A stretch of 64,000 nucleotides of DNA from a phage: the sequence record PZ151149.1. One strand, given 5' to 3'. Positions 2,886-36,856 of the stretch are shown in pieces. Each line of letters opens with the position of its first letter. Positions within the stretch are counted from its first letter, which is position 1. Both the position numbers and the translations under genes were made by a program. The notes below the pieces were generated by a model. It was not told where the DNA came from. It saw only the letters and a program-made list of their open reading frames with translations, and made no database searches.

Positions 2886-5800
2886 ATGGCAGATTTAAGC
2901 AGAATCCAATTTAAACGCACTAGCACTAAAGGTCGTAAACCTGATGCTAGTACGATGTATCCGGGGGAATTAGCAATCAACCTTGCGGATCAATACATGT
3001 TTACTAAAAATGATTCGGGGACTCTCATCAATTTAAGTTGTCCTCCGGTGTATAACCGTGACGTTGTAATGGCGGGTAAGGTTAAAGGAAATGATTATAT
3101 TTTAAGCAAAACCGCTAATTATTTTGAAGACCAAACCGCGCGAGATCTTAATTATTTTGGTGCGTTTCGACCGAATAATGCTGATGGTTGGTCTAACTTG
3201 ATTCTGAACATTCCTCACCCCAGCGGTAAAGCACACGGTCGCGGGTTTGAATTTCAATATGGTTCTAGTTCCTCTCAGGTTAAAACCTATGGCTTTGATA
3301 AAGATGGTGCTAAGCGATTCAGCTTTCGCATGTATCATGAAGGTGATAAACCTACCCCATCGGAATTGAACGTTTACAGCAAACAAGAAGTTGATCGCAT
3401 GTTTGTTAAAAACGTTAAAATGTCAACTCCTAGCAGTGCAACAGGGTATTTCAAAATTGCTACCGCTATGATCCCACAGCAAGGAAAAATGGTATTTATT
3501 CGTATCTATGGTGGTAATGGATACAACGTTAACTCTCCGACTCAAGTTGATTTTGTAGAAATCGTGATTCTTGGTGGGAATGGAAATCCTAAAGGTGTTA
3601 CTGTTGCTGCATATCGAAGAAATTCTTTAAATCAACTTGAAGTGTTTGCTATTAATACATCCGGTGACAACTATGATATCTACGTAAAATATGGTCGGTA
3701 TACCGATAATGTTATTGTAGAATTTGGTAAAACGGTTGGTGTTAATTTAACTGTTCATGATGTTCCAGATTTTTCGGAAGCAAAACCTGCTGGTACTACC
3801 TTTGAAGGTCGTATTATTACCATGTTTAATACTGAAAATAAACGAGGTTCTTTGTATTTCGATCAAAACACGCAAGAGACTTATGATATTATCAGTTTGT
3901 GTGACTATTCAGGTACTGGCAAAAAATATATTCGTAAATTCCGCAGTGGACCAAGCTACGCAATCTGGCATGAAACTGTTCAAGACGACACATATCGTCT
4001 ATCAACTGGTACTACCGATTCTAACGAAGTTCTACGAATCACAGGTCGTACCATGTATACCGGAAAACTGGTAGTGGATGCAGGAAGTAATGCTATTCGT
4101 ATGCTGCGACCTACCGGACAAAGTAACTATCTGGAATATGTGGATAATCGCAACGGTGCTAGCAAGCGTCAAGGATGGATCGGTTTTGGTAGTATTGAAA
4201 ATGATAACTTCCAATGGTATAGCGACGTAGGTAAAAACTCATTACAGTTAGATACTACTGGTCAAATATCATTAACCACAGGTGCAACAAAAATTGTATA
4301 CGCTAATGGTCAATATGTATCGGCTAACTCTGATGCGTATCGTATGATCTACGGTAATTATGGTGCATTCTGGCGTAATGATGGTGCTAGCGTTTATCTT
4401 CTGTCTACTGCTGAAAATGACAAATTTGGTGCTTGGAATACCTACCGACCGTTTATCTATAATTTAGTATCTGGAGACGTTAAATTAGGTGGTACTAACA
4501 CCGCATGTTGTTTGTATCTGGGAATTGATGGTAGTACCCGTATCGAGGATAAATTAGTTTTCAGGGCGGGATCTCGTCAATCAATGGACTACTTAGAATT
4601 TGTTCATTGGGGGGCAAGCAATACAGGTCGAAATAACGTTTTAAGTCTTCGTGACTCAAAAGGATTTTTAGCAGAATTTGAGCGTAAAGGTGATAACACC
4701 ATTCAAAATACATTCTTCGGAAGATTTAAAGTCAATGGTGATTCTAACGCTATTACCATTAATGCTCCTACTGATTCTGATGCTGTTTATGTGAAAGGTA
4801 CTTGTAATGATGTAGATAACTGGTATATCGGTAAAGGTGGTGCTGGTAATGGATTAGTTTTTTGTAGTTATAAGACTAATGCGGCTGTTCATCTCACAGA
4901 TAATGGTGAGGTTTTATTAGCCCCACAAAACACCGCAATTGTTAACATCAATCGCGACCGTATACACATCAACGGTACACAGTGGGTGGCAAATCAGCCA
5001 CATGGCTGGGGTAATCAGTGGCTGTCCGAAGCTCCTATATTCGTTGATTTTGGTACTGGTGTTCCATATGATACCTATATGCCAATCATTAAAGCCCGTA
5101 GCCAAACTGCTGGCGGTTATGCAACTAAGGCCGATTTTGGTATATATCGTCGTGGTGCTGGTGATAATTGGGGTTGGGGTGATGCTGTTATTCGTGTCGG
5201 TTCTGCCGAAAGTGCCGATTCTTCACATCCAAATGCTAGATTCATGTTCCAAGCAAATGGAGATTTTAGAGCACCTGCTGGCCTCCGTGCTGGTGTTAAC
5301 TTGGGTGTTGGTACTGATCCTGCATTGGGTGGACATTCTATTGCTATCGGTGATAATGACACTGGCTTAATGTGGGGTGGTGATGGTCGTATTAACCTGC
5401 TTGCTAACGGACAGCATATTGCGTCATGGGGTGTTTTCCATCAAGAACATCCTGGGCTATGGTCTGTCGGTGCTGGGTTCTGGACAGAAGTCGATAAAGC
5501 GATTATTTCTCACGGTCACTTGATTCAGGCGAATGACAGCTATTCTACATATGTTCGTGACATTTATATCCGTTCGGATATTCGCGTGAAGAAAGACCTA
5601 GTTAAATTTGAAAATGCATCTAAGACACTTTCAAAAATTAACGGTTACAAATATCTTCAAAAGCGCGGGACCAATGAAGACGGTAGCGAACGTTGGGAAG
5701 AAAACGCTGGTTTGATTGCTCAGGAAGTTCAAGCTATTTTGCCGGAATTGGTTGAAGGCGATCCAGATAGCGAAAACCTTCTTCGTTTGAACTATAACGG

Positions 5801-32992: not shown

Positions 32993-34469
32993 TTAAATGT
33001 CAAACAGGTCTGTAAGAGATGCCACTTTTTCATATTGCAGCTTTGCAGCCGTGGTAATGTTCTCCAGTGGTTTGACGAAAGTCTTATTAAACAACAAAGG
33101 CCAGTCTAACCACTTTAACACCTCTGATTCAATTTCTGGTGGAATACGAGTACCAGACAACCAGCCAAAACAGATTTCTCCAAACGGATTTCGATCTTTC
33201 AGCGGTACGATCATAACTTTCTCGCCTTCGCGGATCGGATCTAGTCCATATTTGCGAGCATTGCGATTATAGCACAATACACTCTTAACCGCATACGGAC
33301 AACCCTTAATCGGATACCCGTTTGAATCGCTGTATTTCTGTAGGTTGTTTGCAGATGACACCGCAGCAACCTCAAGATAGTCAAGTTTTCTAAATTCTTG
33401 CTCAAAAATACCGTAGTATTCCTGCAATGACTCTTCACCTTCCTGCAACATACGACGAATACATTCTTTCAGTGATTTCTGACATGCTTTAGGGGTGGAG
33501 CTACGTTGCGTTTCCAAGCCCATGATTTTTAGCTTAGGTTCAGCAAAGCGCGTTCCTTCCATATCCCAAACATTAAGAGCATAACGCTTTTTACCAGTCC
33601 AGAATCCACCGATACCCGCAGATTTCAACGGAGGACCAGCAATTGCCTCGCGGTCCATAAACATCAAGTGCTCATAATTGTTCATGTACTCGCATAACTC
33701 GCGATATCCTTTGTCGATAATCGGTTCCATTCTATGTTTACCGAAATTATCAAGGAAGTCAACAAGTTTTTCGGTATCGTCGAAACGATCTTCCCCGCCA
33801 ACCTTATCAACAACATTGTTAACCAGCACATAAACGGAGTCAGTATCACAATAACGAACATATGCAAAATCGGTTGTTCCGCAAAGCTCGTTTAAGTATT
33901 CGTTAATCTTACGCTCAATCCACTGAATTGCAAGCTGACCGAACAAGGTGATCGCACTAGCGTTACGGAGATCATAAAAACGGAATTTAGGATTCCCCAA
34001 CGCACCATAAAGGGAGTTGATCAAAACTTTTCGAGAAAGCTGGTTTGTATTGCACAAGATCGACTCGTCTTTACATTCTTCCAGCAATTTCTCTAAGGCA
34101 TCTTTGCTTAATTCCGAAAGCATCGATTTAAACGCTTCATCGAAGTCATGACGCACTTCAACGCTATAGCTAATGGTTCCCCCATAAACATGATTTTCAT
34201 CGTGTAGAATCGCTTTACATAGTTCAGCATTGCGATCACATGCCAACATCATGTTTTTGTACTGCTTACGCTGATCGAATACCTTTTTAATCTCAATCGG
34301 TACGATACCATGAATATCTTTTCTATACATCCATCCGTTAGGCGAGCAAGAATACTCATCACTCGGACGTGGTGCAGTTTTATTGATATACTCGTGCATC
34401 GGTGCAGCATCAAAAGATCCAGCGATTGTTTCCGGCGAAATGTTAACCTGACGGATGATTGATGGATAC
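32993..34469 (-). CDS. 43: DNA polymerase gp43, exon 2 (C-terminal part)
   Basis: Homology to T4 gp43 runs upstream of the track ATG through YPSIIRQVNISPET to the proposed 3' splice site at 34469/34470; C-terminal clamp-binding tail SLTDLFDI. Confidence 0.8.
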
Positions 34470-35583
34470 CATTATGTTCAGCGCGGTTCGCTACTCCCGC
34501 GCCCGTTCTCTTGCGAACTGCTACATGTCACCATGTAGATCAGACTATATCACATTCTCATAGAGAATCCTGCCATTTCGAATCGCTTGATTCTACTCTA
34601 CTCGGTTCGTTACCCTTTCGATAGTCGTTGAACAACTGCATCTTTAAGCTCATTTTGATCAAACGGTGTTCTCTTACAGTATCCGCTATAATTCTTAGCA
34701 AAAGGTTTCTTCTTACCAAAAATCTCTTTTCCTGAATTGTGTGCTTCAACAAGAAAATTCACCATTTCATCAAATGTGAAACTTGCAAATTTAGCATAAG
34801 TTTCATTACGTTTTGACATTATTTTACTCATAACTTCCGGTCGTTTAGACGCTGAATTTTCGCGTTTCTCGCCAGTATTAAATGATACCAACTCACCGGA
34901 AACATATCTAGGATCATCACAACTAACTCTAAACCGATTTCCTTCCTTATCCTTAACGATAACAGTATTCTTTAGCTTTTCTGCCATAGAATCAAGACCT
35001 TTTCGTATAGTGTCCTCATCAGCCCCGAAATATTTCTTTCCGCTCATATCGGTTCTGGCTTTTCCGGTCTTGTTTTCGGATATTTTCAGTCTAACTTCCT
35101 CTCGCTTGGCTGGGTTATTGTCTCCAGCGAATGCATCTTTGGTTAACGCCTTCACTTTATCGTCATAAGATCCTCTAGAGATGAAAGCATATGCTCTCTT
35201 GCATTCACCGTTATTGAATATTAAGCACAATAACCGATGCGCCTCGACGTGGTCTTCAAACTTAAGCCTAACAAGATTCCATTTATCTAACCGATATTCA
35301 GGGAACATTGACTTCGGGCATATATGATGCACCTCGGAATATTCTTCACCCTGATACGGATTAGACACCAGTTTAATGTAGTCGTTTAATGCTTCCTCGT
35401 TATGTATTTCGTACTTTCTTAAAATGTCTTTCATCTCGCGCCTCCAATGTATATCAATATCTATATACATTATAAGACACGTTAGCTCAAAATGCAACTG
35501 CTGCTGATTGTCTCCTTAGAGATTTCCCAGCAATTAAGCAGGTTATTCGATCACTGTCACCAGTGAAAGCCCCATATCAGTTT
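34470..35583 (-). mobile_element. probable group I intron in gene 43 carrying an HNH endonuclease ORF
   Basis: 1114 nt between residues that are contiguous in T4 gp43 (LTSL|YPS, polymerase motif A); stop codons in the gp43 frame; 5' exon ends in U, insert ends in G; GGGG 10 nt into the insert can pair with exon CCCU (P1-like). Confidence 0.6.
34610..35434 (-). CDS. intron-encoded HNH homing endonuclease
   Basis: 274 aa from the ATG at 35434 (GGAGG SD); HNH core EVHHICPKS...WNLVRL...EDHVEAHRLL; GDNNPAKR motif. Confidence 0.75.
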   Translation of the reverse strand: MKDILRKYEIHNEEALNDYIKLVSNPYQGEEYSEVHHICPKSMFPEYRLDKWNLVRLKFEDHVEAHRLLCLIFNNGECKRAYAFISRGSYDDKVKALTKDAFAGDNNPAKREEVRLKISENKTGKARTDMSGKKYFGADEDTIRKGLDSMAEKLKNTVIVKDKEGNRFRVSCDDPRYVSGELVSFNTGEKRENSASKRPEVMSKIMSKRNETYAKFASFTFDEMVNFLVEAHNSGKEIFGKKKPFAKNYSGYCKRTPFDQNELKDAVVQRLSKG

Positions 35584-36785
35584 AGGGAAGTAAGGTCAAA
35601 GCTCATCATCCAACGGTAAGCATTCGGCACAGGTTCTTTTACAAATGCGCCTGGATACGTCTGCTTAGGCTGTATCTTATTTTCCGGTACTACTTTACCC
35701 TCTGCTTTCAGAGATCCGAAGATAATAGCATCCCATACTTTCATCGGATTATAAACATGGTTAAATTTAATCTTTGCATAGAAACATAGGCTATACACCA
35801 GATCAATAAAACCACGCTTTTTATCAATCGCCAGCACACGGTCAACGTCGCCGATGTTATAATCGATGTAAAGTTGATGGTTGTCATCACGCAATTTCTT
35901 TAATGGACCATCATAATCAACCTTACCGATTCCTGTCTCATATTCAGCAACATAATCTAATGCATATGTTGGTTGAGTCGTAAAGCTAAATTTCTTGTAC
36001 AGGTCAATATAATCAAGGCTTTCGATCCCCATGATCGTAAATGCTTCACGCTCATTGCCAAAATCATCCTGTGAGATTCGGGATTTAATCTTACCGCACG
36101 GGCTTAATCGGTTTGCCGTTCGACTTCCAAACTTATTACTGATACGCTTAATGATATACGGGATATCGAATGTTTCTGTGTTCCAGCCAGTGAAGCCAAC
36201 TGGTCGGTTTTCCTCAAAGAATCGGATGTATTCTAATAGCAATTCATCTTCTGTATCATAGACGTTATAAACAACGCGCTCTACAATATCAGGTCGAAGA
36301 ATAGATTTGTTTGCTTCCCAGATTTCACCGTTTTTTCCTTTCAAATCAAATACAAAGAAACGATCATGTACGGAATCATAATGCGTAATTGCATCGATAG
36401 GATATTTCGCCTCTTCTGGTTTAGGAAATTCCGGTGCGGTGACCTCAATATCAACCCACGCTACACGGATTTTATTTCGGTCATATCGAATCTCACCTTT
36501 ATATGCATCAGACAGATAGGAGATGATAAAATCATCCATACCTAGTGCCTCTTGCCCCATTTCCCCCATCCTTTTACGCCATTTGTTGGCCTCGTTCATA
36601 GATGGGAATTTTTTAGCAATGCAAGGCTTGCCATAGATATCTTTATAATTTGTAACCATACCAGGCGCGGCATGATGAAATAATGTTGGCGTATATTCAA
36701 CGTAACGCTCTTGTTCTTGTCCAGCATCATCAATATAACGCTCGTAGATCTTATCACCTACTCGCTCACATGACAGAAAATACAT
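35584..36785 (-). CDS. 43: DNA polymerase gp43, exon 1 (N-terminal exonuclease and start of polymerase domain)
   Basis: Start at ATG 36785 (AAGGAG SD; track start was GTG 36815); MYFLSCERVGDKIYERYIDD aligns with the T4 gp43 N-terminus; ends in motif A ...FDLTSL. Confidence 0.8.
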
Positions 36786-36817
36786 AATATAAACTCCTTC
36801 ACTTACGAAAGACACTC

Positions 36818-36856
36818 ATTATAGGGGAATCGACTTAGTTTGTCAATACCCCTATC
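36818..36856 (-). promoter_or_regulatory. promoter upstream of gene 43 with the -35 inside a hairpin loop
   Basis: TTGACA, 17 nt, TATAAT on minus strand; inverted repeat ATAGGGG/CCCCTAT encloses the -35 and spacer. Confidence 0.5.

Follow-up and report, generated by a model that had tools for sequence, protein, structure and literature searches.

A probable mobile group I intron with an intact HNH-type endonuclease gene in motif A of the gene 43 DNA polymerase of an RB49-like phage

The closest described relative of the element analysed here is in Escherichia phage JSE. For gene 43 (DNA polymerase) of that phage, Petrov et al. 2010 (Virol J 7:292, PMC2993671) reported 'another putative group I intron', the endonuclease gene of which is truncated, in one sentence and without structure or experiment. 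In the polymerase gene of LIMEstone1, I-LimII was listed as a putative intron-encoded enzyme by Adriaenssens et al. 2012 (PMC3296691). A group I intron in gene 43 is also known from Aeromonas phage 25 (25.g43B; Petrov, Ratnayaka & Karam 2010, cited in PMC2993671 and PMC2988022); as far as these two citing papers describe it, it has no open reading frame (ORF) of its own, is predicted to use a neighbouring free-standing endonuclease and belongs to a gene that is also split into 43A and 43B. Here we describe gene 43 in a stretch of phage DNA of 64,000 nucleotides (nt) (sequence record PZ151149.1), the whole of which we call the window. Its gene 43 is interrupted by an insert of 1114 nt that is very probably a mobile group I intron of the T-even IA2 type, with an HNH-type endonuclease gene looped out of its P6 helix. 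Whereas 25.g43B lies in motif B (NSLYGA|LGN), the insert in the window lies in polymerase motif A. The intron is already known from JSE; the window holds its intact form, a typical element that brings little surprise for specialists.

The window comes from an RB49-like T4-type phage of the genus Krischvirus; Escherichia phages ELT4, G2494, kvi, MIZ4, ECD7 and others share 97-98% identity with its positions 32993..36815. The interrupted gene consists of the following parts (coordinates are those of the window, sequences are given in the orientation of the gene):

35584..36785, minus strand: gene 43 (DNA polymerase) exon 1, ending GAC CTT ACT TCC CT (FDLTSL, with bases 1-2 of the Leu codon)
34470..35583, minus strand: very probable group I intron (IA2-like), 1114 nt, with 5' end AAACUGAUAUGGGG, 3' end ...GAACAUAAUG and a terminal G
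32993..34469, minus strand: gene 43 exon 2, beginning G TAT CCA TCA (Leu completed, then YPSIIRQVNISPET...) and running to the stop codon

A preliminary description of this locus had joined two ORFs across the insert, and the ORF ends and insert limits that it gave proved exact to the base. The N-terminal ORF (35577..36815) terminates in ...MSFDLTSLN*, and the exon 1 ATG at 36785 agrees with the start of RB49 gp43 (MYFLSCER). Up to its first ATG, at 34399, exon 2 translates as L-YPSIIRQVNISPETIAGSFDAAP-M. The junctions read GAC CTT ACT TCC CT|AAACTGATATGGGG ... GAACATAATG|G TAT CCA TCA ATC ATC CGT, which places the insertion point between the second and the third base of a Leu codon in motif A (DLTSL|YPS), at residues 401/402. 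Removal of the insert left 2679 nt encoding 893 amino acids, equal in length to the intron-less gp43 of RB49, and restored DLTSLYPS; at the corresponding point RB49 gp43, which is without the insert, reads ...FDLTSLYPSIIRQ / ...FDLTSLYPSIIRQVNISPET....

Conserved motifs of family B DNA polymerases (PolB) are known insertion sites of inteins in archaeal polymerases, and an intein or another protein-level insertion is for this general reason an alternative for motif A. The reading frames exclude it, as had been argued in the preliminary description. TGA occurs in the gp43 frame 5 nt into the insert and TAA stands in frame directly 5' of exon 2, so that gp43-frame stops lie at both ends of the insert; the ORF within it is in another frame and has its own Shine-Dalgarno sequence and ATG.

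The ends of the insert are those of a group I intron: the 5' exon ends in U, the insert ends in G (34470), and splicing would remake CT|G = Leu, all as first described; the last bases of the insert are ...AUAAUG. The GGGG that had been noticed near the start of the insert occupies intron positions 11-14 and is complementary to CCCU of the exon. Helices were read from the sequence and checked by folding, and P1, P10 and the elements of the proposed group I core (P3-P8, the P7 pseudoknot, J6/7 and J8/7; P denotes paired and J joining segments) were found:

35570..35578, minus strand: internal guide sequence 5'-GAUAUGGGG-3', of which GGGG pairs with 5' exon CCCU (P1) and GAUAU with 3' exon GUAUC (P10)
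35551..35566, minus strand: P2 hairpin UCACUG-GUGA-CAGUGA, 6/6 pairs compensatory among relatives
35537..35542, minus strand: P3 5' strand CCUGCU, 100% of cells paired and 4/6 pairs compensatory
35502..35532, minus strand: P4-P5 domain UGCUGG GAAA UCUC UAAG GAGA CAA UCAGCA, with P4 UGCUGG/UCAGCA and P5 UCUC/GAGA
35492..35501, minus strand: P6/P6a 5' strand GCAGUUGCAU; the endonuclease ORF lies in a loop of the P6/P6a helix
34632..34641, minus strand: P6/P6a 3' strand AUGCAGUUGU, partner of GCAGUUGCAU, enclosing the ORF
34622..34631, minus strand: J6/7 and P7 5' strand UCAACGACUA, invariant in 8/8 aligned introns
34575..34621, minus strand: P7.1/P7.2 extension (subgroup IA type), 47 nt between P7 and P3', with P7.2 GAAUC-AAGC-GAUUC
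34569..34574, minus strand: P3 3' strand GGCAGG, pairing with CCUGCU
34555..34567, minus strand: P8 hairpin UUCUC-UAU-GAGAA, from folding and alignment
34543..34554, minus strand: J8/7 and P7 3' strand UGUGAUAUAGUC, from the Rfam alignment and the alignment of eight introns
34521..34538, 34505..34518 and 34481..34502, minus strand: P9, P9.1 and P9.2, within 34470..34538, from folding and comparison with nrdB
within 34470..34538, minus strand: 3' tail UGAACAUAAUG, with the terminal G at 34470

In this structure P1 is formed by CCCU|AAA with UAUGGGG and carries a U.G pair at the splice site. The guide GAUAUGGGG can pair along its whole length with CCCU|GUAUC of the ligated exons, two of the pairs being wobbles, and no other 9-mer of the intron can do so; when the first 40 nt were shuffled 20000 times, a 9/9 match to the ligated exons appeared in 58 cases. 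With this shuffle test, and with the insert at the same base in 14 GenBank records (below), a chance origin of its features is excluded. The predicted junction of the ligated exons is UUCCCU|GUAUCC (DNA ...ACUUCCCU|GUAUCCAUC...), and the tryptic peptide that would span it is WMMSFDLTSLYPSIIR.

Relatives of the intron were collected by BLASTN with an ORF-deleted mini-intron, which matched 892 phage records. The 3' half was 81% identical to the T4/RB3 nrdB intron; ORF-less relatives came from phiKZ-like Pseudomonas phages, Acinetobacter phage YMC13/03/R2096, Bacillus phage BSP21 and Vibrio phage D148, and the split polymerase gene of Aeromonas phage phiAS4, a relative of phage 25, was matched as well. 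We aligned eight introns with MAFFT, including those of T4/RB3 nrdB and phiAS4, and projected the helices of the window onto the alignment. P1, P6a, P9.1 and P9.2 were out of register in several sequences and P2 in phiAS4 and phiLC; the count was made over 46 pairs of P2-P9, including the P7 pseudoknot and leaving out P1, P6a, P9.1 and P9.2, while P2 was kept despite its register trouble (83% paired). Standard pairs occupied 96.2% of the cells, compared with 78.6 ± 1.3% after column shuffles and with 32-44% when the partners were slid by 1-3 columns, the latter control being favoured by the derivation of the structure from the window sequence itself. Both sides had changed in a compensatory manner in 29 of the 46 pairs, and none of 500 shuffles reached any of these measures. 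The compensatory changes fell mostly in P2, P3, P5, P7.2 (100% paired, with 4/4 variable pairs compensatory) and P9, and P7 was invariant, as were GUUCAACGACUA and GAUAUAGUC, the latter representing J8/7-P7', across the eight introns. Twenty-nine compensatory pairs over eight introns are hard to explain except as a group I structure.

The alleles of the intron itself pointed in the same direction. Among six full-length alleles (window, ECD7, ELT4, MIZ4, PTE-Eco09 and JK32) all 33 substitutions lay at intron positions 123-917, that is, in the P6 loop and the ORF, and the non-coding flanks are thus more constrained than the ORF. The ribozyme flanks (a 122-nt 5' core and a 197-nt 3' part, 319 nt in total) showed no substitution, with about 13 expected at the rate of the ORF; the sole change in them was the loss of 1 nt in PTE-Eco09 (position 1111, which precedes the terminal G by 3 nt). 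Such conservation fits a ribozyme on whose activity an essential gene depends.

Gene 43 might alternatively be a split gene, in which the insert is a spacer with a free-standing endonuclease gene and two polypeptides, gp43A of about 47 kDa and gp43B of about 54 kDa, assemble without any splicing; the joined gp43 would have a predicted mass of about 103 kDa. Split gene 43 subunits that assemble do exist among T4 relatives, for example in Aeromonas phages 44RR and 25 (PMC2988022), and GenBank shows two separate 'DNA polymerase' coding sequences (CDSs) at the locus. Two relatives of the window's insert, those of phage vB_VmeM-32 and of L021 (a metagenomic T4-like contig, Logan SRR30924197), even lie in polymerase genes with a real second split. 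This known 43A/43B position, however, is at gp43 residues ~489-510, and the interruption in the window is at 401/402. A separately translated C-terminal part would also lack a proper beginning, with TAA standing right before exon 2, a start codon only at Met 24 (ATG 34399) and no Shine-Dalgarno sequence 5' of that ATG (...GATGCTGCACCGATG). A start at 34399 would drop YPSIIRQVNISPETIAGSFDAAP, 23 codons that include the Y and P of motif A, which is the loss that the preliminary description had predicted. In seven intron-bearing alleles this 69-nt stretch had five variable sites, four of them at third positions, and the peptide was kept save for a V->A change in JK32. The stretch thus evolves as coding sequence and is translatable only after splicing, which argues against a split gene. 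So does the fit of the guide sequence to the ligated exons, and so do the non-coding flanks of the insert, which make up a group I core with covariation and vary less than the ORF. We therefore regard a split polymerase as very improbable. The preference of the preliminary description for a group I intron over an intein or a 43A/43B arrangement holds on the strength of P1/P10, the U and G ends, the core, the covariation and the coding-type 23 codons.

The ORF that the P6 loop of the intron contains can be described as follows:

34610..35434, minus strand: putative homing-endonuclease ORF, 274 amino acids, with an H-N-H motif (E34, H36, H37, N53, H62, H66)

Its start is the ATG at 35434, with GGAGG 6 nt upstream, as annotated in ECD7, and not the TTG at 35497 of the mechanical ORF list. 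The last 32 nt of the ORF overlap P6', J6/7, P7 and P7.1. A search of 5.8 billion proteins gave 43 homologues (26-99% identity). In their alignment E34, H36, H37, P40, H62 and H66 were invariant and N53 was at least 90% conserved; the AlphaFold2 model (mean predicted local distance difference score 89, predicted template-modelling score 0.40) placed strands at 33-37 and 54-58 and a helix at 59-73, which is a beta-beta-alpha-metal topology. Between the JK32 ORF and that of the window 22 sites differed, of which 19 were third codon positions; this pattern indicates purifying selection on the protein. The HNH label of the preliminary description is supported by the invariant H-N-H residues, the modelled topology and the PHROG families (PHROG 12434 'HNH endonuclease', expectation value (E) 1e-130; phrog_655 'homing endonuclease', E 3e-19), and found no backing in Pfam, NCBIfam or a significant structural match. 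We consider the product likely to be of the HNH type on the grounds of motif and topology, a call less secure than that of the intron.

All of the closest annotated homologues of the ORF lie between two polymerase CDSs, namely in Vibrio phage vB_VmeM-32 (49% identity), Dickeya phage LIMEstone1 (I-LimII, 35%) and Acinetobacter phage nACB2 (35%). These units share with the window the endonuclease family, over its full length at 35-49% identity, and the site DxxSL|YP, with junctions FDLTSL|YPHEI in vB_VmeM-32, EDLNSL|YPHII in LIMEstone1 and VDANAL|YPHMA in nACB2; their phages belong to other families and subfamilies (Ackermannviridae, Emmerichvirinae), and the peripheral helices differ. In L021 the endonuclease is 65% identical and the junction is FDLTSL|YPSIIRQ. 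In all five motif-A introns the 5' exon ends in CCCU, GGGG stands about 10-20 nt from the intron start, and the last base of the intron is G. As an aside, I-LimII is given as GIY-YIG in a table of the LIMEstone1 paper and is HNH by its GenBank record and motif.

The nrdB intron of T4/RB3, which encodes I-TevIII and belongs to IA2, resembles the element of the window in its P6a-looped ORF and its P7.1/P7.2 extension. P9.1 and P9.2 are homologous between the two, and P9.2 shows compensatory changes, being formed by GCGCGG/CCGCGC in the window and by GUUGAG/CUCAAU in RB3 nrdB. As in the window, a hairpin with TATAAATA stands 5' of the Shine-Dalgarno sequence of the RB3 ORF, and the 3' end of that ORF overlaps P7. 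The host genes and target sites differ, as does the reading frame in which each ORF overlaps the core, and the two endonucleases have no detectable homology beyond the H-N-H motif of about 35 residues, which aligned with that of I-TevIII without significance (BLASTP E 0.81; hhalign E 0.045).

Two features precede the endonuclease gene:

35437..35481, minus strand: hairpin sequestering GGAGG, the Shine-Dalgarno sequence of the endonuclease gene, -20.1 kcal/mol, z -3.5, with 0/200 shuffles as stable
35458..35465, minus strand: late-promoter-like octamer TATAGATA in the hairpin loop, with one mismatch to the T4 late-promoter consensus TATAAATA

The hairpin is the palindrome that had been noticed upstream of the Shine-Dalgarno sequence. 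The octamer was TATAGATA in the window, ELT4 and JSE and TATAAATA in ECD7, MIZ4, PTE-Eco09 and JK32; TATAAATA was also found 5' of the homologous ORFs in L021 and vB_VmeM-32, and I-LimII is preceded by an annotated 'putative late promoter'. In the I-TevI and mobE paradigm the ribosome-binding site is sequestered and this is relieved in late transcripts. By analogy, the layout of hairpin and late promoter appears to match that paradigm, and with the G allele the endonuclease may be less expressed late in infection. Since the 3' end of the ORF overlaps P6', J6/7, P7 and P7.1, limited translation of the ORF on the pre-mRNA would protect splicing.

Evidence from the Rfam group I model (RF00028) has to be read with its gathering threshold of 50 bits in mind. 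The covariance-model scan that had been proposed as a check aligned the core below that threshold. With E-value reporting the 3' part of the window intron scored 33.9 bits (E 1.6e-6), and a second fragment covered P3-P4 near the 5' end. The JSE allele, from which 650 nt of the ORF are deleted, aligned with the full model (1-253, 42.9 bits, E 1.4e-9); P1 fell on the junction of exon and intron, and insertions relative to the model measured 216 nt in P6 and 44 nt between P7 and P3'. As a control, the RB3 nrdB intron, an established T-even intron with its I-TevIII ORF in P6a, scored 31 bits, and ORF-less relatives reached 69-102 bits.

Several results weigh against an active mobile intron with an HNH endonuclease. 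At the gathering threshold Rfam gave no match in the whole window, and both the 33.9 bits of the window and the 42.9 bits of JSE are below the curated 50 bits. The low score is explained by the long ORF in P6, as in the RB3 nrdB intron, and since that control fails the threshold alike, the sub-threshold score is uninformative. An E-value scan of L021 and L023 reported nothing at E<=0.01, though the homologous intron was visible by eye; here the miss is ascribed to filter loss in the longer input together with the ORF. We could not draw a convincing P7.1 pairing from the 47-nt extension, P10 is strong in the window and weak in the LIMEstone1 and L021 homologues, and the slide control of the covariation count was, as said, a favourable one. 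In the literature we found no report of splicing of the Krischvirus motif-A intron or of its LIMEstone1 homologue, both of which are called 'putative', no report of cleavage by a motif-A element and no description of an intact-ORF Krischvirus allele. On the side of the endonuclease, the 274-aa ORF had no match in Pfam or NCBIfam, none of its 43 homologues had a Pfam domain, and the library matches were weak (one homologue with HNH_4 at E 0.084; NUMOD3 sub-threshold). Searches of solved structures with phmmer and a profile gave chance-level matches only, and Foldseek of the full-length model against the PDB gave nothing significant, the structural match being weak; with its elongated shape and several domains the model is poorly suited to a whole-chain structure search. 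The activity and the target of the enzyme are both inferred, and the mismatch in TATAGATA leaves its expression in the window uncertain.

A dead intron or pseudogene, with inefficient splicing and a defective gene 43, or an assembly artefact, would agree with the Rfam scores below threshold and with the deletion in PTE-Eco09. Gene 43 encodes the essential replicative polymerase, and the same structure recurred in at least 11 plaque-forming phages that had been isolated independently, in several countries. In the full-length alleles the ORF varies and the ribozyme flanks have no substitution, and the RB3 nrdB control is equally low in Rfam. A dead intron or an artefact is on this evidence exceedingly improbable.

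The distribution of the intron among close relatives is patchy. In the phage collection 73 records matched the region, of which 12 had the full insert and two, both from JSE, had a 464-nt version; the other Krischvirus records (95-99% identity) covered 71% of the query, corresponding to the uninterrupted gene region of 2709 nt. The insert was thus at the identical base in 14 Krischvirus GenBank records and was absent from the rest. The JSE version stands at the same base of gene 43 with matching exon flanks and arose by a 650-nt deletion of the ORF between AAGAAT repeats, with both ends kept and one substitution; save for one P9.2 base its ribozyme parts are identical to those of the window, where the 274-codon ORF is intact. 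The ORF of PTE-Eco09 (Escherichia phage vB_EcoM_PTE-Eco09, locus 1382-2353) is in two pieces, and with the 1-nt intron deletion this may reflect decay with a slightly altered 3' splice region, or sequencing errors. The GenBank records annotate two separate 'DNA polymerase' CDSs and a 'hypothetical protein' or 'HNH endonuclease', and at least 14 of them should carry one joined gene 43 CDS and an intron feature.

The exons next to the intron differ with its presence. All intron-bearing Krischvirus alleles read CTT ACT TCC CT|, and all intron-less alleles read TTA ACA AGT CT| or CTC ACG AGT TT|, so that the fixed differences are only at -5 to -3, a synonymous Ser switch AGT -> TCC. The intron-less RB49-type site is ...GACTTAACAAGTCTGTATCCATC..., and the intron-bearing exon junction is ...CTTACTTCCCTGTATCC.... 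TCC supplies CC for the pairing of P1 with GGGG, and AGU would pair less well. The switch seems best explained as co-converted donor sequence that would also be needed for P1 and would possibly confer immunity to cleavage. Mobility is suggested, indirectly, by these intron-linked exon changes, by the patchy presence among phages that are ~97% identical, by the same target site across families and by the purifying selection on the ORF in JK32.

These observations suggest the following course of events. Gene 43 would be transcribed with the intron from an early promoter, and ribosomes on the unspliced RNA would halt at UGA. The RNA would fold from P1 to P9.2, with the guide GAUAUGGGG holding first CCCU (P1) and then GUAUC (P10). 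Free guanosine would attack after the U, the terminal G would dock, and ligation of the exons would give CUG and a single gp43 of 893 amino acids, as the structure implies. In long transcripts the hairpin would bury the Shine-Dalgarno sequence, and translation of the ORF would disturb folding; the late promoter in the loop would, by analogy with I-TevI, give late transcripts without the 5' arm of the hairpin. In a mixed infection the endonuclease would cut or nick an intron-less gene 43 near motif A, and repair would copy the intron and a few flanking exon bases, to which the patchy distribution and the linked exon changes point. After fixation the endonuclease gene would decay and the ribozyme would be kept, a state seen in the JSE and PTE-Eco09 alleles.

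The near-identical phages would represent a natural series of the homing cycle, with an empty site in RB49, an intact element in the window, ECD7 and JK32, a nonsense allele in PTE-Eco09 and a deleted one in JSE; several phages of the series are therapy candidates. The element leaves the current understanding of group I introns unchanged, and its value lies in the correction of the annotation and in a homing series at a universally conserved motif. For annotation it also matters that the Rfam threshold misses ORF-bearing phage introns, that of RB3 nrdB included. The endonuclease would be a new reagent-grade enzyme for the most conserved PolB motif. A wider interpretation is possible, though we hold it only tentatively: the enzyme could be the founding member of an HNH lineage that is absent from domain libraries and specialised on PolB motif A (DxxSL|YP), which together with its IA2 intron would have moved between Straboviridae (Krischvirus, Vibrio and metagenomic T4-likes) and Ackermannviridae (Limestonevirus, nACB2), with AGT->TCC acting both as P1 partner and as immunity to cleavage.

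The neighbours of gene 43 in the window are uvsX on one side and regA, gene 62 and gene 44 on the opposite side, and one further feature precedes it:

36818..36846, minus strand: sigma-70 promoter upstream of gene 43, TTGACA-17-TATAAT, 12/12 match to the consensus

A 'hypothetical early promoter' is annotated in RB49 where the window has this consensus, which is likely the early promoter for the pre-mRNA.

The core of 25.g43B appears homologous to that of the window, as judged from its relative in phiAS4 (69 bits in Rfam). In phiAS4 (1239-1412) the CDS of a 'DNA polymerase-like protein' appears to read into the motif-B intron after NSLYGA (F*), and the 'split DNA polymerase' CDS starts within the 3' part of that intron. 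We inferred the motif-B splice site of phiAS4 by comparison with T4 gp43. The second gp43 gap in L021 (5252-7818) measures about 2.5 kb and holds seven same-strand ORFs, including a Macro-domain protein. The corresponding gap in vB_VmeM-32 (4335-4983) contains a terminator and a single ORF; five pieces are annotated for the polymerase of this phage. This second interruption looks like the Aeromonas-type 43A/43B split with an unusually large gene cargo. Two ORF-less group I introns in tandem (442-711 and 827-1049; 78.8 and 96.6 bits) were found in Acinetobacter phage YMC13/03/R2096, in unannotated DNA just 5' of the CDS for the terminase large subunit, which suggests that this terminase gene is mis-annotated and twice interrupted.

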